A stretch of 64,000 nt of DNA from an uncultured Acidobacteriota bacterium (GTDB lineage: Bacteria > Acidobacteriota > Blastocatellia > RBC074), in NCBI GenBank assembly GCA_963796275.1, contig CAWCKY010000001.1:288001-352000 (forward strand), written 5' to 3'. Below are positions 20,805 to 62,011 of this stretch, piece by piece. The first letter of the stretch is position 1, and the number at the start of each line of letters is the position of its first letter. The notes beneath the pieces were generated by a model, which made no database searches, was not told where the DNA came from, and was given only the letters and a program-made list of their open reading frames with translations. Made by a program: the position numbers and the translations under genes.

Positions 20805-21839
20805 TCAGACTGTTTTCGTCACTTTTGACAGCATCCTCGGGTTATCCGGACTTAAACCTTTAGCCTCGGCCAGATAAGCGGCGAAGAGTTGCGCTGGTAT
20901 GATGTATGGGATCGGCGAGAGGATTTCGCTGATGCGCTGTGGAATTTTAAGGGTGCGCGACCCTGCTTTGAGCGCTGACGCTTCGCTTGAAATCACCACG
21001 GTCTCGGCGCCGATTTCGCTCAGTTTTTCCAATAATTCCTTGGTTCCCTTCATGGTAGGCCCGGGGGGCGCGAACAGGAAAACGGGAAAACCTCTATCGA
21101 CCATTGCAATTGGCCCATGCAGAAAGTCAGCGCCGGAAAACCGCTCAGCCACGACATAACAGGTCTCCATCAGCTTGATCGCAAATTCGTAAGCGTTGGC
21201 GTAATTCAAACCGCGGCCGACGACGACGCAATTCTCCATAAAGGCATAACGCTCGACTATCTCTTTCACCTGCGGCTGAATCTTGAGCGATTCCGCCGCC
21301 AGTTGCGGCAGAACCTCGATCTCCGCTTCATCTTTGTTCCGGCTGAGAGCTCGCGCGAGCATATGAAAGATCAACAATTGTCCGGTGTAAGTTTTGGTAG
21401 CGGCGACGCTGCGTTCGCGTCCGGCGTGGATCAGGAATGTTTCGTCCGCTTTCTTCGCCATCGATGACTCAGCCTCGTTAGTGATAGCCAGAGTTGTCGC
21501 TCCGCAGCGTTTGGCATTTTCAAGGACAATGTTGATATCGACTCCTTCTCCTGATTGCGAGATGCCGACGACGAGGGTGTTTTGCAAATCTAGCTTTGCT
21601 TTATAAAGTGTATGAATCGCGGGGGCGGCTAGCGATACCGGGATCCCGGTTGTCATCTCGAGCAAATAACGGCCGAAAAGTGCGGCATTATCCGAGCTGC
21701 CGCGCGCGACCAGTACGATCAAGCGCGGGCGATGATCGTTCAACGTAGCTCCGAAACGCGCTATCTTCTTAGCTTCTCTTTTGATCGTCCGTTCGATGAC
21801 GCTCGGCTGTTCTTCGATTTCCGTTAGCATTAAGGACAT
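20805..21839 (-). CDS. SIS-domain amino-sugar isomerase/deaminase (GlmS C-terminal-like)
   Basis: ARGSSDNAA, ISQSGE, SVAATKTY, FLHGP, LSKVTKT. Confidence 0.9.
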   Translation of the reverse strand: MSLMLTEIEEQPSVIERTIKREAKKIARFGATLNDHRPRLIVLVARGSSDNAALFGRYLLEMTTGIPVSLAAPAIHTLYKAKLDLQNTLVVGISQSGEGVDINIVLENAKRCGATTLAITNEAESSMAKKADETFLIHAGRERSVAATKTYTGQLLIFHMLARALSRNKDEAEIEVLPQLAAESLKIQPQVKEIVERYAFMENCVVVGRGLNYANAYEFAIKLMETCYVVAERFSGADFLHGPIAMVDRGFPVFLFAPPGPTMKGTKELLEKLSEIGAETVVISSEASALKAGSRTLKIPQRISEILSPIPYIIPAQLFAAYLAEAKGLSPDNPRMLSKVTKTV

Positions 21840-56165: not shown

Positions 56166-57782
56166 TCATCTATCGCTGGCTCCCGCAATCAGATTGATCA
56201 ATCGTTCGCGGCGTGATCTTACCGGGGCTTCCATAACCACAAACGAAAGGATATAGAAGCCCAGACAAAAGATCAAAATCAGACACGAGACCCACCAGTA
56301 ACGCATATGCATGGTCTGATCCAACCGATCGCTGAAAAAGACCGCCACCCAGAGCGGGACGCTGATCCCGATGATGACCACCAGATTTGCGCAGAATGAG
56401 AGGCGGCTGTTCCACATCGCGTCGAAATTCAATCTTTTCGGCGAGAAGACCGAAGTCCACAATCCGATCGCGTTGAAGAGAAAGAGGCTCGCCACCGCTA
56501 TGCTCAGTATCATGACGATCATTCGCCAGGTGATCGTTTCACCGGCATAAAATATCAGCCACAAGCCAAACGCGACCATGACGGTGATCGTGCGTAACAA
56601 CAGCGAAGCCAGGCTGCCAGCCCGCAGAGCTTCCGCCAATGAGATCGGCAGAATGGCATAACGGCGTATGCCGGCATCATCGTACCCGAAGAGGTTGAAC
56701 ATGAGCGCCGCTCCGGTCGCGCTGCTCAAAATGAAAAAGATTGAGAGCGATAACAGAAAAACTCTATCCTGCCAATTCCACGGTAAAATATATTTTCCCA
56801 TCAGCACGATGATCGGCGAAGTTATCAGGCTGAAGCGGATGATATTTGAACGCAGATGATAACGAAGGGATTTACTAACTATCGGCCCATATCTGCCGCT
56901 CATTAAATTCCCGAGTTGATCGATCAAATCGCTACGGATGACAGTACCCGGAGCGGCGGACCGCGTGCTCGGGGAGCGCCGCTCGAGTCTCGTCAGACTA
57001 TAAGCCAACGCCGCGCACCAGATGAACAGCAGGCCAGTGCCCCCCAATTTGAGGGAGCCATCGCCCGACATCATTGCCGCCGCTGCACCGGGAGGAGTCA
57101 ATTGCAAAAATTGATCGAGCATAAGCCATATATCGAATCGGTGGGCGGCGACCAGCGACGCAATCGCCAGCGGACCGAACGAGACCAGGAGAATCACCAG
57201 AGCGCTGAATAGAGCGGTTCCGCTGCGCGTCTCTACTATAACGCCGGCGAGCGATAGCAAGACCGAGGTCGCCAGGTAACTCACGATGATGAAGAAAATG
57301 GCGGCGGGGAATACCGTCACAATCGATCCATGTCCGGTCCACGCCAAGCCGATCGCCAAACCGAATGCGCCCGCAACAACGATCAACCATACCGGATCGA
57401 GCAACCCGATCGCGTGCCGCACCAAAAATCGCTCCTGAGAATTCAATGGATAATGGCGGAGGGCTTCTTCCGAGAAAGCCGAGCGCGCGCCCAGGCCGAA
57501 GAGAATGCTCAGCCCGACCCCGTTAAAGAACAGCATCGTCAGACCCCATCTCGCGATCGATTCTCCTTCTCCCAACTCAATCGCGCCTTGCGCCATGCCC
57601 CAACCGACGAGCGAAAAAAACAACAGGCTGATTCCGCCGAGCAGGTAAAGAGCGAAGAAGAGTGCCATCCGCCCATTACTGGTGCGGGCTTGCGCCCAGA
57701 TAAGACGATAGCGAAGCCGGATCAGTACCCCGAATTTACGCGGGAATCCTGCCCAATTGATATGTTGCGAATCTACGTGCAC
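56166..57782 (-). CDS. ABC-2-type permease (multi-TM)
   Basis: About 12 hydrophobic segments; immediately upstream of the ABC ATPase. Confidence 0.75.
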   Translation of the reverse strand: MHVDSQHINWAGFPRKFGVLIRLRYRLIWAQARTSNGRMALFFALYLLGGISLLFFSLVGWGMAQGAIELGEGESIARWGLTMLFFNGVGLSILFGLGARSAFSEEALRHYPLNSQERFLVRHAIGLLDPVWLIVVAGAFGLAIGLAWTGHGSIVTVFPAAIFFIIVSYLATSVLLSLAGVIVETRSGTALFSALVILLVSFGPLAIASLVAAHRFDIWLMLDQFLQLTPPGAAAAMMSGDGSLKLGGTGLLFIWCAALAYSLTRLERRSPSTRSAAPGTVIRSDLIDQLGNLMSGRYGPIVSKSLRYHLRSNIIRFSLITSPIIVLMGKYILPWNWQDRVFLLSLSIFFILSSATGAALMFNLFGYDDAGIRRYAILPISLAEALRAGSLASLLLRTITVMVAFGLWLIFYAGETITWRMIVMILSIAVASLFLFNAIGLWTSVFSPKRLNFDAMWNSRLSFCANLVVIIGISVPLWVAVFFSDRLDQTMHMRYWWVSCLILIFCLGFYILSFVVMEAPVRSRRERLINLIAGASDR

Positions 57783-57858: not shown

Positions 57859-59181
57859 TCAACATTGCAAATGCGAACGATCGATTGTGAAGCCGTCCAG
57901 ATCGCCCAAAACCGTAACCGCCATTTCAGCCGGTTGGAATATCTGGTTTGCCACCCGGCGCACATCCTGCGCCGTGACCGCGTCAACGTTTACGATGATC
58001 TCATCGGGTGAGATGAAGCGGCCCAATGTCATCTCCTGCTGCGCCAGCGAACTCATGCGTGAGGACGTCGATTCGAGATTGAGCATCAAGGATGCTTTCA
58101 ATTGATCCTTGTTGCGCTCTAATTCTTCTTCCTCAATCAATTCTGATTTGATCCGGACTAGTTCTTCCATCGTAGCTGCAACCGTTTCGTCAAGCTGTTC
58201 GGTCGAAGCGGCGGCATAAATGCTCATGTAACCGCAATCACTGAATGGGTTCGCGGAGGCGAAAATGGTATATACGAGCCCTCTCTCCTCACGTATCGCC
58301 TGAAACAGCCGCGAGCTCATTCCACCGCCTAGAATGACGGACAGGATAGTGGTTGTATATCGGTCTTCGCTAACCGACGAGGGGCATGGCGAACCTATCA
58401 CAAGATGCGATTGCTCGAGCTCGCTTTTGTGCCTGAGGGTTATCGGAGCGGCCGCGACTGGGGGCGTATAGCTCAAGGGAAAGTTGCGCGATCTCATATC
58501 TCCCAAATAGGTCTGCGCCAGATCGATCAACTGGTCATGTTCCAGATTACCCCCAGCCGCAATCACCAGATTGTCCGGCGCGTATAGTTCTTCGTAATAG
58601 GATCGCACGACATCGGGTTTAAATGTCAAAAGTGATTCCGGAGTGCCCAGGATCGGACGTCCGAGCGGGTGGTCCGGATAGAAGTTCTCGCAAAAAATGT
58701 CGAAGATGTAATCATCAGGCGTATCCTCAACCATTTTGATCTCTTCGAGGATGACATTGCGCTCTTTTTCCAGTTCGGATGGATTGAATGCCGGATCGGT
58801 AACCAGATCCGCCATAAGTTCAAAAGCCCGCGGAAGATGTTGATCGAGAACTTTGTTGTAGTAGCCGACGATTTCGCGGCCGGTGAATGCATCCAGATGC
58901 CCGCCAAGCGTGTCGGATTCGGCCGCTATTTGCGCCGCTGAGCGCCTGCGCGTCCCTTTGAAGAGAGCGTGTTCGATGAAATGCGTGAGTCCATGCCGGC
59001 GGTTATCCTCATTGCGCGAGCCTCCTCGTAAAAAAACGCCGAAACTCACCGAACGAACATGCGCCACTTTCTCAGAGACAATCACGAGACCATTATCAAG
59101 CCTCGTTTTGCGTACATCAAAATTGAGATTCGTTGATCTCTCCTGAGTCGATCTTCCATCAGTGCCTGATTTTGATTCCAT
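57859..59181 (-). CDS. M16-family zinc peptidase
   Basis: [11 protein letters not shown] (HxxEH), [25 protein letters not shown]; start uncertain. Confidence 0.95.
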
Positions 59182-59284
59182 TCGCCCATCATACGACAGC
59201 AACTCTTATCGCCCCAAACCTTTATTAACGGGACATAAAATCCCGATGCTTTTAAGTAGTTATACCTAGGAGGAATATGATTGG

Positions 59285-59335
59285 TGTCGTCAATTGTTGA
59301 CAGGGACATGCCTTCCATGTCCACAATATTAGACA
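59285..59335. promoter_or_regulatory. Two tandem TGTC-N10-GACA palindromes, putative bEBP upstream activator sites
   Basis: TGTCGTCAATTGTTGACA (59285-59302) and TGTCCACAATATTAGACA (59318-59335), 33 bp apart, ~100-150 bp upstream of the -24/-12 site. Confidence 0.6.
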
Positions 59336-59433
59336 TCGATGCTGGTGATTAGAAATCCAAAAAAATGAATTGGGGATGATAAATCACTCTGTTTTATTTA
59401 TTTATACATATTGGAGCTTTGCGGGGATGCTTA

Positions 59434-59449
59434 TGGCACGGTCATTGCT
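59434..59449 (+). promoter_or_regulatory. Sigma-54 (-24/-12) promoter
   Basis: TGGCACG-GTCA-TTGCT matches TGGCACG-N4-TTGCW; predicted TSS ~59461. Confidence 0.8.
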
Positions 59450-59648
59450 AAGAGTATATATCGTAAAACAAAAAGAACCGGGTAATCTTCAAGGTTCGAG
59501 AATTCATTTTGCAAAAATTAAACCAGACGGAAGGATCGTTACGGGCAGCTCGAGTTTACGGGTTTGACCTCACAATCGACACGGCTTCGACGCGCCGCGC
59601 GGTTCTTCCGAAACAGGTAGATGGTTTGGAGCGCTGCTCCCAAGGGAA

Positions 59649-59768
59649 TGTAGTGATCGGTTAAAGAAAAGGACACGGGGGTCGGATTTAGCCGGTAACT
59701 ACAGCTTCGATTCGCAGGTTACGCCACGCAGGGAACGGGGCACACTGTTTGGCGTAACTTGCGAATCG
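59649..59768 (+). ncRNA. Two-hairpin RNA module, copy 1
   Basis: Stem A TGTAGTGATCGGTTAAA/TTTAGCCGGTAACTACA with loop containing GGACACGGGGGTCGGA; stem B CGATTCGCAGGTTACGCCA/TGGCGTAACTTGCGAATCG with loop GGAACGGGGCACA. Confidence 0.75.
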
Positions 59769-59852
59769 GCCGAAAGGCTGGGCTACGAATAAATTCCCTG
59801 AGGTAGAGCCCAAGATTTTTGAGTTATTGTTCTTGCGGTTTTGAAAGATCTT

Positions 59853-59973
59853 TGATTCTCAGTCGGAAATACGGGATAGATGCTCTATTGGATTTTGAGA
59901 ATCACAAGTTTCGATTCTCAGGTTGCTCTGCCTGGAGAACGGGGCACGCCAGGTGGTGCGACCTGAGGATCGA
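59853..59973 (+). ncRNA. Two-hairpin RNA module, copy 2 (most divergent)
   Basis: Stem A TGATTCTCA/TGAGAATCA with AATACGGGAT; stem B TCGATTCTCAGGTTGC/GCGACCTGAGGATCGA, inner CCTGG/CCAGG, loop AGAACGGGGCACG. Confidence 0.7.
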
Positions 59974-60046
59974 TACCTAGAATTGAAAATTCTGTAATTG
60001 ATAATTCTTTGAAAGATAATCGTCGAGCGCATCGCTCCGATTTGAG

Positions 60047-60166
60047 ATTGTAATTGTCAGTTGGAAAAGACACGGGGGTCGGATTTTAGCTGTCAATTAC
60101 AATAGCGATTCGCAGGTTACGTCATTCGGAGAACGGGGCACACCGTGTGGCGTAGCTTGCGGATCG
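60047..60166 (+). ncRNA. Two-hairpin RNA module, copy 3
   Basis: Stem A ATTGTAATTG-CAGTTGGAA/TTTTAGCTG-CAATTACAAT with loop AAGACACGGGGGTCGGA; stem B CGATTCGCAGGTTACGTCA/TGGCGTAGCTTGCGGATCG with loop AGAACGGGGCACA. Confidence 0.75.
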
Positions 60167-60271
60167 AACAAAAGAGTTGAGAACACAGCAGTCTTTAGTC
60201 CGTAGTCTTTATACACAGCATATACACAGATATAGAATTTGACGATTTGGGAGCAGGGCTCTCAAAGGTAA

Positions 60272-60391
60272 TGTAGTGATCGGTTAAAGAAAAGGACACG
60301 GGGGTCGGATTTAGCCGGTGACTACAGCTTCGATTCGCAGGTTACAGCATACAGGGAACGGGGCACACTGTTTGGTGTAGCTTGCGAATCG
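60272..60391 (+). ncRNA. Two-hairpin RNA module, copy 4 (near-identical to copy 1)
   Basis: About 7 substitutions versus copy 1 by manual alignment, including a compensatory G-C to A-T pair in stem B. Confidence 0.75.
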
Positions 60392-60611
60392 GTTGCATTT
60401 TGAGCAAAGATTTTGGTAGAGCGCGGTCCCCACACTGCGCTTGTCACTCTTAAGGCTGAAACCCACTCAGCCCGAATGTGGCATCGAGCCCTCACAATCA
60501 TGTCCACAAATAATGTCTTCTCCCGCTACTAAGGGCTTCTCCTACTTGAGGCCCAAGGGCTCATGTGGTTTTTTCCGTAAGGCACTGATGTGCAGTGAGG
60601 GTCCTCACCCC

Positions 60612-60665
60612 AGCAATAATGGGCTGCTAGCAGTCTGAAAAGGCTACTGGCAGCCCAATGTTGCT
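60612..60665 (+). terminator. Long hairpin closing the non-coding locus (possible terminator or 3' stabiliser)
   Basis: GGGCTGCTAG-C-AGTC tgaaaa GGCT-A-CTGGCAGCCC with flanking AGCAAT/GTTGCT; U-tract weak. Confidence 0.4.
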
Positions 60666-60677
60666 TTACGGGCGCTA

Positions 60678-60686
60678 TGTTATACT
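60678..60686 (+). promoter_or_regulatory. Extended -10 promoter for the sbcD-like gene
   Basis: TGtTATACT ~55 nt upstream of ATG 60743. Confidence 0.45.
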
Positions 60687-60742
60687 GCCTTGCGCAATTT
60701 CAGCATAATGACTAAGTATAACGATTAAGCATTAATCACTCG

Positions 60743-62011
60743 ATGACTAGGTTTCTTCACATCGCTGACATTCATCTGGGCATCCGGCGTTACCGTTCCG
60801 AAGATCGAGCACGCGACTTCTTTCTCGCATGGCGGGACTGCATCGAACGCTATGCCCTCGCCGAAAAAGTATCGTTCGTGCTGATCGCCGGCGATCTCTT
60901 CGATGCCCGCAAGGTCGAGCCCCAGGCGATGAATCAGGCGATGTTCTGCCTCTCGAAATTGCGCGACGCCGGGATACCCGTCGTAGTCATTGAGGGTAAC
61001 CATGACTGTCACGAGGCCGAGAAGCGATTCAGTTGGTTGCGCAGCCTATCGCAATGGGGATTCATCCATCTGCTCGAACCGATATATGGTGAAAGCGGCT
61101 TGAGACTGCTCCCGTGGGATGCCGATTCCAGGACAGGATCATTCATCGACATAGACGGCGCGCGCATCTTCGGCTCGATCTGGTATGGATCGACTGTCAG
61201 TCAGGCGCTCCCAGGGTTGATCGATGAATTGCGCAACCACCACAGCGACCGCCATTTTAACATAATGATGCTCCATACCGATGTCGAGGGCCAGCTCAAC
61301 CGCCCGATTCCCGCGCTGACGGTGTCGAAGATCAATGAACTTCGGTCATATATCGACTACCTGGCTCTCGGTCATACTCACAAAAACTTCGAGATCGACG
61401 GCTGGGTGTACAACCCGGGTTCGCTCGAGGCTTGCAATGTTGACGAATATGCGAATGTGCGCGGGGCGTATCTGGTGGAAATCAAAGATGGCCGGCATAA
61501 CGCTCAACTCGTCCGCGATTATCATCAGCGGCCGGTAGTGCGGCTGAGTATCGATGTGAGGGGGCGCGCTACGCCTGAAGAACTGCACGAAGCCTTGTTC
61601 GATCAGCTTCGCTGCCAATTAACTCCTCATAATCCGGCTGAAAACGGTTCTCCCGCTCCGGTCATCGAGCTTTCATTACGGGGTCATCTCGGATTTAAAA
61701 ATTCGCTTCTCGAAATAAATCGCATTCGGGATGAGATCAAAGTAGAATTCAAACCGCTCCTCACGATCGTAAGAAATCAGACTATCCCCATCGAATACGC
61801 GGTCGCCGCGGGAATCAGCGAGCATATTTCGCGTGCCGAACGTGAACGCATGGTGATTGAAGATTTGATCGCACGAGACACGCGGTTCCGCGAGCAAACA
61901 ACCGTCATGGCCGGACTGGTACTTGAAGCCAAGCGCCTGGCGCTTACTGATGAGCTGCCTTCAAAAATTGTCGAACTGATCGAAGAACGTCTCGCTCAGT
62001 CTGGAAATTAG
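60743..62011 (+). CDS. sbcD: SbcD/Mre11-family DNA repair exonuclease
   Basis: [36 protein letters not shown]. Confidence 0.9.

Follow-up and report, generated by a model that had tools for sequence, protein, structure and literature searches.

A modular structured RNA gene with a sigma-54-type promoter in one family of the acidobacterial class Blastocatellia

In the genome of an uncultured member of the Blastocatellia (Acidobacteriota; assembly GCA_963796275.1) a gene for an M16-family peptidase (57859-59202, - strand) is separated from a gene for a Metallophos/SbcD-like phosphoesterase (60743-62011, + strand; Pfam assignments) by an interval in which an initial annotation, made from the sequence alone, had seen no credible open reading frame (ORF). 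Coordinates are those of the window, by which we mean the whole 64,000-nt stretch that was analysed (positions 288,001 to 352,000 of contig CAWCKY010000001.1). The interval indeed contains no ORF longer than 65 amino acids (aa), and none of its eight ORFs of at least 50 aa matched a Pfam family at E<=0.1. Here we show that positions 59285-60670 constitute one orthologous, vertically inherited + strand gene for a structured non-coding RNA of ~1.2 kb; that a real structured RNA gene occupies the locus we regard as close to certain.

Read 5' to 3', the gene opens with two TGTC-N10-GACA dyads, followed by a sigma-54 -24/-12 element and a leader; four two-hairpin modules come next, and a C-rich 3' domain with a terminator closes it (Table 1). 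This order of parts is identical across a whole-locus alignment of the array locus with seven relatives, and searches with the tail were concordant; given the order, tail and terminator included, the transcript should extend from ~59460 to ~60668, as predicted from the sequence. The multi-module array proposed in the initial annotation is therefore real as far as its modules are concerned, but it is only the middle of the gene; the dyads and the leader stem had been passed over, as had a structured tail of 250 nt and the small hairpins next to modules 1 and 4.

The modules begin at 59649, ~59850 (previously placed at 59853), 60047 and 60272, and each folds on the + strand into two hairpins, with energies of -57.6 to -60.6 kcal/mol and z-scores of -6.6 to -9.2 that none of 200 shuffled sequences equalled; the - strand folds are weaker (-30.8 to -44.7 kcal/mol). 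The loops and compensatory stem changes originally quoted for the four copies are all in place, with one amendment: where eight ACGGG(G) loops had been counted, seven are intact ACGGGG and the remaining one, in hairpin A of copy 2, is degenerate (ACGGGAU). Copies 1 and 4 are 94% identical, copy 3 shares 63% identity with copy 1, and copy 2 is recognisable chiefly through its hairpin B. Over the eight aligned loci the modules correspond position by position, modules 1 and 4 forming one subtype and module 3 another, and the spacers between modules are not conserved. Five of the seven aligned relatives retain CGGGGGTCGGA in the orthologue of module 2; the A loop of this module is lost in the host's genus only, to which the two exceptions, L010 and L012, belong.

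Copies 1, 3 and 4 served to build a covariance model (131 positions, 42 pairs), which matched 59 sense-strand modules at E<=1e-7 in 19 loci (the array locus and 18 relatives), with antisense echoes scoring far lower. Among these modules 94.4% of 2433 cells are paired, compared with 81.6% after shuffling and 27-39% when the partners are slid. Changes on both sides are seen at 40 of the 42 pairs (24.4 in shuffled alignments) and in 344 cells (92 shuffled), with 120 further pair types, and not one of 500 shuffles reached any of the observed measures, so that the covariation first suspected from the four copies extends to homologues. It should be noted that the alignment was fitted to the covariance model and is thereby biased toward structure; the case for covariation nevertheless remains strong, because of the slid controls and the 120 further pair types. 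G-U pairs make up 347 of the paired cells, and the proportion that pairs consequently falls to 82.2% when the antisense strand is read, as expected for the + strand RNA that the G-U variants had suggested. Together, the shuffle z-scores and the covariation over 59 modules place the observation beyond chance.

While the helices covary freely, the loops are invariant. Hairpin A has GAC-ACGGGG-GUC-GGA and hairpin B has A-ACGGGGCAC-R, and the loops of the tail contain CCC. The hairpin B loop A-C-G-G-G-G-C-A-C (ACGGGGCAC) is kept in 58-59 of the 59 modules, and the hairpin A loop ACGGGG-GUCGGA in 51-57 of them.

The sigma-54 promoter motif that had been noticed upstream of the modules (59434-59448) is likewise a property of the family. 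Among 72 distinct loci that could be evaluated (11 further loci lie at contig edges), GGCAY-N5-TYGC is present on the array strand in 70, with a median distance of 211 nt to the first module downstream; in the first 19 loci it was present in 17. At least one exact TGTC-N10-GACA dyad lies no more than 260 nt upstream in 67 of the 70 motif-bearing loci, and 51 have two. The distances between dyad and promoter fall into classes ~11 nt apart (112-117, 123-129, 134-138, 145-151, 156-159, 167-171 and 180-183 nt), as predicted for a dependence on the face of the helix. The whole genome contains 71 dyads and 63 strict promoter motifs, and a dyad stands 40-300 nt upstream of a motif at only two places, namely the RNA locus, with its two dyads, and C3:1391826. 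There is one rpoN gene and there are 49 matches to Sigma54_activat, none of which places a gene for a bacterial enhancer-binding protein (bEBP) within the window. From this arrangement of motifs, transcription very probably depends on sigma-54 and an activator. A scan of the region for sigma-70 promoters and terminators gave no enrichment over shuffled sequences.

The dyads have the form of the GlrR (QseF) site, TGTCN10GACA, that is found upstream of the sigma-54 promoter of the small RNA (sRNA) gene glmY (PMC3045617). In the E. coli sequence three such dyads lie 230, 197 and 134 nt from the glmY 5' end. Both genes have a sigma-54 promoter whose TGTC-N10-GACA sites stand over 100 bp upstream (150 and 117 nt here), a likeness of promoter design and not of the RNA. 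A tblastn search with E. coli GlrR returned about 12 near-equal bEBPs (289-308 bits), and its C-terminal domain alone gave two weak matches. Between the dyads and the promoter lies an A/T-rich block (59378-59410, ATAAATC...TTTATTTATTTA), partly conserved in relatives, which by analogy with glmY could be a DNA-bending site of the integration host factor type, although it is a poor match to the quoted consensus.

The other place with a dyad and a promoter (C3:1391669-1392120, equivalent to L112:1170-1620) has its dyad at L112:1170-1187 and a strict sigma-54 motif at 1326-1341. The next 350 nt contain no + strand ORF of at least 80 aa, fold with a z-score of -3.2 and have no Rfam match. Of 40 family genomes 18, the unpublished G004 among them, share a conserved piece of 70-150 nt (about L112:1535-1620), which has GACCGCAACCUCC within a long-range helix. 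In three relatives the first feature after the promoter is a small Flp-type-pilin-like ORF (judged by eye). The locus may encode a second RNA of the same regulon.

Outside the modules, inspection of the eight-locus alignment indicates that the leader stem has been preserved by changes in both of its strands and that CCTCAC and GCGC do not vary; folded alone, the leader is no better than its shuffles (z 0.0). A small hairpin, GGAGCGNNGCTCC (GGAGCgnnGCUCC), precedes the first and last modules in all eight aligned loci, and a GGCC-loop-GGCC/GGCT hairpin with the loop GAAA, GTAA, TTAC or TTCAC follows modules 1 and 4 in the relatives. The tail of ~250 nt adjoins arrays at ~70 loci in nhmmer searches, and a hidden Markov model of the tail found no second one elsewhere in the 9.46-Mb genome. 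For 32 distinct tail sequences (alignment A5) the structure predicted by RNAalifold comprises the hairpins T1 and T2, the terminator and, enclosing T4, the long-range helix T3. The 60 pairs of this structure are formed in 94.5% of cells (86.6% when shuffled, 32-41% when slid), with changes on both sides at 31 of the 60 pairs and in 198 cells against 61; the terminator (helices 9-11) contributes ten of its 18 pairs. The unpaired parts are C-rich and nearly invariant, comprising the T1 loop UCCCAA, CUUCUCCCGCUA, the T4 loop UCUCCCACUU and GGGUCCUCACCCCAGCAA. The U-run after the terminator reads GCTGTTTTT in most relatives. The T-run at 60570-60575 could be an internal, earlier terminator or an Hfq-type site. 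In other metagenome-assembled genomes (MAGs) the extra single-module genes have shorter tails, which lack the segment 60583-60617.

Table 1. Parts of the RNA gene and their coordinates in the window.
Feature	Position	Strand	Remarks
Upstream dyad 1, TGTCGTCAATTGTTGACA (TGTC-N10-GACA)	59285-59302		Presumed sigma-54 activator (bEBP) site; starts 150 nt upstream of the -24 GG
Upstream dyad 2, TGTCCACAATATTAGACA	59318-59335		Starts 117 nt before the -24 GG; seven relatives have their second dyad at the aligned position
Sigma-54 -24/-12 element, TGGCACggtcaTTGC (TGGCAC-N5-TTGC)	59434-59448	+	Read from the sequence; transcript start predicted near 59460
Leader, ~165 nt	59461-59627	+	Long-range stem GGAAGGATCG (59529-59538) / CGGTTCTTCC (59600-59609) around CCTCAC (59568-59573)
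Small hairpin GGAGCgctGCTCC before module 1	59628-59640	+	From the eight-locus alignment
Module 1	59649-59769	+	-60.6 kcal/mol, z -7.1; covariance-model score 155 bits
Module 1, hairpin A	59649-59703	+	Loop GAC-ACGGGG-GTC-GGA
Module 1, hairpin B	59707-59769	+	Loop GGAACGGGGCACA
Small hairpin GGCCgaaaGGCT after module 1	59768-59779	+	Followed by RGTYGAGCGC in relatives
Module 2	59850-59973	+	Hairpin A degenerate (loop AATACGGGAT...), hairpin B intact; -57.6 kcal/mol, z -6.6; 56 bits
Module 3	60047-60166	+	Second subtype, GGAAAAGAC-ACGGGG-GTCGGATTTT; -59.7 kcal/mol, z -8.7; 134.6 bits
Small hairpin GGAGCaggGCTCT before module 4	60250-60262	+	From the alignment of loci
Module 4	60272-60392	+	94% identical to module 1; -60.2 kcal/mol, z -9.2; 151 bits
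3' domain, hairpin T1	60420-60441	+	Loop TCCCCACA
3' domain, nested hairpin T2	60443-60483	+	RNAalifold
3' domain, long-range helix T3	GAGCCCTC (60487-60494) / AAGGGCTC (60556-60563)	+	RNAalifold
Single-stranded CTTCTCCCGCTA	60518-60529	+	Enclosed by T3; 3' domain (60420-60565)
Hairpin T4	60534-60555	+	Enclosed by T3; loop TCCTACTT here, TCCCACTT in most relatives
T-run directly 3' of T3	60570-60575	+	U-rich stretch after T3 in most of the 32 aligned tails
GCAC-tgat-GTGC hairpin	60583-60594	+	Part of segment 60583-60617
Nearly invariant GGGTCCTCACCCCAGCAA	60600-60617	+	TCCTCACCC invariant in 32 of 32 tails
Terminator	60612-60668	+	Outer stem CAGC/GTTG around GGGCTGCTAGCAG...CTACTGGCAGCCC, then TTTA; covarying helices

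The spacer before module 4 (60210-60238, + strand) carries 2.4 copies of an 11-nt repeat, TATACACAGA. The sole sigma-70-like match of the region (9 of 12 positions) falls in the same stretch, the count being not above the shuffle expectation of 2.6.

The RNA family does not appear to have been described, and it is apparently restricted to one family of Blastocatellia. A cmscan search of 58500-61500 with 4227 Rfam 15 models gave, at E<=10, only two chance matches (to a small nucleolar RNA and a microRNA model; E>4), which bears out the earlier remark that the family could not be recognised. Acido-1, Acido-Lenti-1, 6C, CsrB/Rsm, Qrr and GlmY/GlmZ are among the families without a match; Rfam gave no match at gathering scores over the whole window, and ARAGORN found no transfer RNA or transfer-messenger RNA. 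In the open-access full-text and bioRxiv literature we found nothing resembling the RNA, no regulatory RNA described for Blastocatellia and none such in Acidobacteria. The general kind, a modular regulatory RNA with a sigma-54-type promoter, is already known; the design is unusual.

BLAST with 59400-60450 matched 18 of 24 other genomes of the host's family (hereafter f1), and among 16 genomes outside the family it gave one weak match of 27 nt; with the covariance model, 35 of 38 sampled f1 genomes were positive. Neither the 112 genomes sampled from nine other families of the class (E<=1e-5) nor, in a phylum-wide sample, the 149 genomes other than its sole, positive f1 member gave a match, and since these are samples searched with Infernal's stricter filters the results mean 'not found' rather than 'absent'. 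An exact-pattern scan of one genome per species yielded 83 stretches, nearly all in MAGs labelled Acidobacteriota, Blastocatellia or Blastocatellales; the pattern matches outside the group (L034, L055, L067, L091 and L109) have no model match and are taken as chance. Thirteen array-bearing MAG records are labelled Heliomicrobium or Heliobacteriaceae, of the Bacillota (L030, L031, L036, L041, L048, L053, L062, L068, L075, L077, L081, L092 and L099). These labels are probably wrong; L075 is the same contig as G011:C1, which is assigned to f1.

The module is found at a single place in the 9.46-Mb genome, one syntenic locus, with none of the dispersed copies that would mark it as a miniature inverted-repeat transposable element (MITE) or repetitive extragenic palindrome (REP). 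In 16 of the loci of 19 relatives, for each of which 3 kb were available, the RNA is followed by the SbcD-like gene, and in 11 it is preceded by the M16 gene. Complete arrays (n=63) hold one module in 21 cases, two in 2, three in 7, four in 19, five in 9, six in 4 and seven in 1, and some MAGs have two to four separate single-module genes. Ten single-module loci were examined, eight of which have a dyad, the promoter motif, a module, a tail and a strong terminator. Six of the ten are on contigs of multi-gene MAGs (four in one, two in another), each with its own dyad, promoter and terminator, and four of these six are in unrelated gene contexts. In multi-gene MAGs one copy stays beside the SbcD-like gene and the others adjoin unrelated genes. 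The pattern is that of a vertically inherited, sometimes duplicating gene and not of a mobile repeat.

Close relatives of the RNA are present in soil RNA libraries. A search of public runs gave two soil metatranscriptome runs of one study, each run containing a small share of the words. Their contigs, aligned to the locus at 85% likeness or more, cover 59628-59771, 59890-60139 and 60321-60562; they are 61-386 nt long and 85-99% alike, with word depths of up to 453 (a 148-nt contig) and 334 (an 88-nt contig). Positions 59300-59605 are uncovered and 60575-60800 almost so, where the flanks of the relatives are perhaps too diverged, and the coverage says nothing about transcript ends. As the contigs are strandless and DNA carry-over is possible, they lend weak support to transcription.

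CsrB/RsmZ and CrcZ are protein sponges that display many copies of a short motif (GGA or A-rich) in loops, and CrcZ is sigma-54 dependent. The Blastocatellia RNA is like them in repeating one short motif in its loops, copy number presumably setting the capacity, and unlike them in that the motif is ACGGGG and the modules are long, regular two-hairpin units. It differs from CsrB/RsmZ further in that the only GGA is in the invariant GUCGGA flank of hairpin A, and in that no CsrA gene was found: PF02599 had no match in the 94.7%-complete genome, in a search whose control was positive in 3 of 14 named genomes (E. coli, B. subtilis and T. maritima). Type III toxin-antitoxin RNA arrays (ToxI-like) consist of short tandem repeats followed by an endoribonuclease toxin gene, whereas the units here are ~200 nt, the next gene encodes a Metallophos/SbcD-like phosphoesterase, and extra copies precede unrelated genes. 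The Qrr RNAs are ~100 nt long and Hfq-dependent, with a long single-stranded seed. Vibrio Qrr1-5 are sibling sRNA genes, each with its own sigma-54 promoter and one activator, and in this respect are matched by the MAGs with two to four single-module genes; the Blastocatellia RNA has no match to an Rfam model of Qrr.

Closer in architecture are two modular RNAs. NrsZ of Pseudomonas aeruginosa needs RpoN and an NtrC-class activator and has three ~60-nt modules with the loop motif ACAGGCAG (PMC4253122). It shares with our RNA an RpoN-type promoter motif and repeated, similar stem-loop modules with a conserved loop motif, a likeness of architecture only: the Blastocatellia modules are ~125 nt long with two hairpins, carry ACGGGG instead of ACAGGCAG, number one to seven per gene and are followed by a 250-nt 3' domain, and they belong to another phylum and resemble NrsZ neither in sequence nor by model, Rfam giving no match at E<=10. 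CcsR ('cuckoo') of Alphaproteobacteria has C-rich anti-Shine-Dalgarno loops, CCUCCUCCC, and is co-transcribed with a DUF1127 gene from RpoHI/HII promoters (PMC8034643). Like CcsR, the Blastocatellia RNA has tandem two-hairpin units with the same motif in both loops and a variable copy number; unlike CcsR it has G-rich ACGGGG loops instead of CCUCCUCCC, no DUF1127 or other ORF, a sigma-54-type promoter and much longer stems. As for GlmY, which is a protein decoy for RapZ (PMC4152352), the likeness to the GlmY/GlmZ system extends to the presence of a RapZ-like gene, which is unspecific since 7 of 14 control genomes also have one, and the differences are a lack of Rfam model similarity, the lack of a unique GlrR orthologue and unremarkable pairing with the glmS 5' region.

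Searches for RNA partners, crude as they were, gave results that were all negative or non-specific and that cannot exclude pairing. Duplex searches of the loops against the RNA's own leader and tail revealed neither a consistent pairing site nor a specific loop-loop partner. Shine-Dalgarno mimicry was rejected, in that loop A pairs with the 16S 3' end at -11.4 kcal/mol, a value reached by 227 of 1000 shuffles, and loop B pairs more weakly than the shuffle mean. Exact complements of the loop 9-mers occur 16-21 times in the genome where ~54 are expected, none of them in a telling context; the exact loop 9-mers themselves are also under-represented, again without a telling context. A 12-nt match of loop A to the C3:1391826 locus is not conserved in three relatives. 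GlmZ-like pairing with glmS fared no better, six pieces of the RNA ranking 26-67 among 150 control 5' regions when set against glmS -150..+30. The glmS gene (C3:1188330-1190194, - strand) is itself in two overlapping frames (model positions 1-243 and 235-607), which suggests a frameshift or an assembly error, and an ORF resembling the GlmS C-terminus (SIS) lies within the window at ~20820-21839 on the - strand.

The best explanation overall, which we put forward tentatively and at somewhat less than an even chance, is a trans-acting multivalent decoy under sigma-54 control. Transcription would require sigma-54 and an NtrC-class activator bound to the dyads on a fixed face of the helix, and the RNA would therefore be made in response to a signal. 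It would act in trans, with the invariant loops as its contact surfaces. That it is a trans-acting regulator is likely, because extra copies lie in unrelated contexts, the gene has its own terminator and there is no conserved ORF; the loops would be the working parts because the stems drift freely and the loops are frozen. The modules would be multivalent decoy sites for an oligomeric RNA-binding partner, more probably a protein than an RNA, and their number (1-7) would set the titration capacity; such a decoy fits best because each module presents two different ACGGGG loops on neighbouring ~20-bp stems and module number varies over a seven-fold range. A decoy for a protein specifically is nonetheless a possibility to which we would not give even chances. 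The 3' domain would see to termination and stability, and its UCCC-type loops might add a further activity, by base pairing. One lead, by analogy, is that RapZ is decoyed as it is by GlmY, common as RapZ-like genes are: one such gene (PF03668) lies at C3:1421067-1421531, beside rpoN, and the host genome has no match to the glmS ribozyme. A bolder version, which we consider unlikely, is a large signal-induced riboregulator that joins a variable G-loop decoy array and a C-rich effector domain in one sigma-54 transcript, the array buffering or gating the effector or a RapZ-like partner.

Several points weigh against the decoy. No CsrA was found and the textbook sponge partner is therefore missing; no other binding partner emerged, and the results fit protein binding and RNA pairing alike. 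A unique GlrR orthologue does not stand out as the activator, about 12 bEBPs being equally alike. The transcript data are strandless contigs of one study, the sigma-54 start and the transcript ends are predictions, and at the studied locus itself the terminator U-run is weak. The base-pairing sRNAs RsaE, LhrC and RNAIII use CCC/UCCC loops. Several such loops are present in the tail, Hfq is encoded, and both features favour a precursor of base-pairing sRNAs instead, as do the architectural relatives NrsZ (PMC4253122) and CcsR (PMC8034643), which are processed base-pairing RNAs.

In the sRNA-precursor explanation RNases would cut the transcript into sibling modules and a 3' tail sRNA, the G-rich loops pairing with CCCCGU-like sites in mRNAs or sRNAs and the UCCC loops of the tail with Shine-Dalgarno regions; we think this somewhat unlikely, but it is the main alternative. 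The C-rich loops of the tail look like seeds directed at ribosome-binding sites. The explanation would account for the invariant single-stranded C-rich motifs and terminator of the tail and for stems of at least 20 bp, which would suit RNase III. Hfq is encoded by the host, and the single-module genes with their own sigma-54 promoters in some MAGs would correspond to Qrr siblings. The precedents are NrsZ, which is sigma-54/NtrC dependent and processed into three similar modules (PMC4253122), and CcsR, with tandem two-hairpin units that carry one motif in both loops and are freed by RNase E (PMC8034643). No target, however, was found in the leader and tail, 16S, genome-wide, second-locus or glmS tests, and two different invariant loops per module would require two classes of target. 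G-rich seeds are, moreover, unusual for bacterial sRNAs.

Large ornate RNAs such as OLE, ROOL and GOLLD work as folded machines or scaffolds, and the whole ~1.2-kb RNA could similarly be one folded entity whose G-rich and C-rich loops make tertiary or intermolecular contacts. Its size, the number of its conserved helices (each module has 42 pairs, the tail 60), the occurrence of both loop types together in every gene copy and the high word depth of the RNA-library contigs are in keeping with this, yet we find it improbable: a range of one to seven modules is hard to square with one fixed architecture, the inter-module spacers are not conserved, the duplex searches gave no specific loop-loop partner, and covariation cannot support loop contacts because both sets of loops are invariant. 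A cis-acting leader or attenuator of the SbcD-like gene is more improbable still. The RNA gene has the same orientation and ends ~70 nt before the start codon of that gene, the linkage holds in 16 of the 19 relatives' loci, and one copy per genome stays at the site even where there are extra copies (L045, L066); against this, the extra copies, with their own promoter and strong terminator, adjoin genes for cytochrome c assembly, ALAD and a FAD-binding protein, the covarying terminator helix leads into a U-run in the majority of the 32 aligned tails, and we know of no precedent for a modular cis leader of 1.2 kb. Finally, the idea that the locus has no function as RNA, being a repeat at the level of DNA (MITE/REP, CRISPR-like or satellite) or a short coding region, is already contradicted and has next to no chance of being correct. 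The copies are tandem and related and their hairpins would form in DNA too, but there is nearly always one syntenic locus or cluster per genome, with conserved flanks; G-U pairs fall on one strand only; compensatory changes accumulate while the loops stay fixed; promoter and terminator are conserved; no ORF exceeds 65 aa or matches Pfam; and the copies have diverged too far for Tandem Repeats Finder to detect an array.

Few bacteria in soil are as abundant as the Acidobacteriota, and the RNA would help to fill a gap in what is known of regulatory RNAs in this major soil phylum. A gene model that is complete from enhancer-like sites to terminator represents a testable post-transcriptional circuit in mostly uncultured organisms, and through it the combination of a sigma-54 promoter and TGTC-N10-GACA sites that is known in glmY/glmZ would be found in a distant phylum as well. 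It is unusual for one RNA to have both a C-rich 3' domain and long stems capped by invariant G-rich loops, a design that could reveal a new RNA-binding partner; if a decoy array and an effector domain were indeed joined under a GlrR-like two-component pathway, soil Acidobacteria would possess a tunable post-transcriptional switch. A new Rfam family could be started from the covariance model and the alignments, which could also serve the annotation of soil metatranscriptomes.

Some further observations concern the host genome at large and the neighbouring genes. Tandem runs of the heptamer CACGGGG, the core letters of the hairpin B loop, occur at C2:411668, C6:734434, C6:2108871 and C7:778428 and may be simple repeats. 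An identical 33-nt string containing ACGGGGGTC is present 13 times (for example at C1:494863, C3:263548, C4:243627, C6:308390 and C7:347871); it is unrelated to the modules, as its flanks differ, and is probably part of an insertion sequence or other dispersed repeat. Directly downstream of the M16 peptidase gene an ORF of 538 aa (56166-57782, - strand) has no Pfam match at E<=0.001, in a position where a second M16 subunit might be expected.

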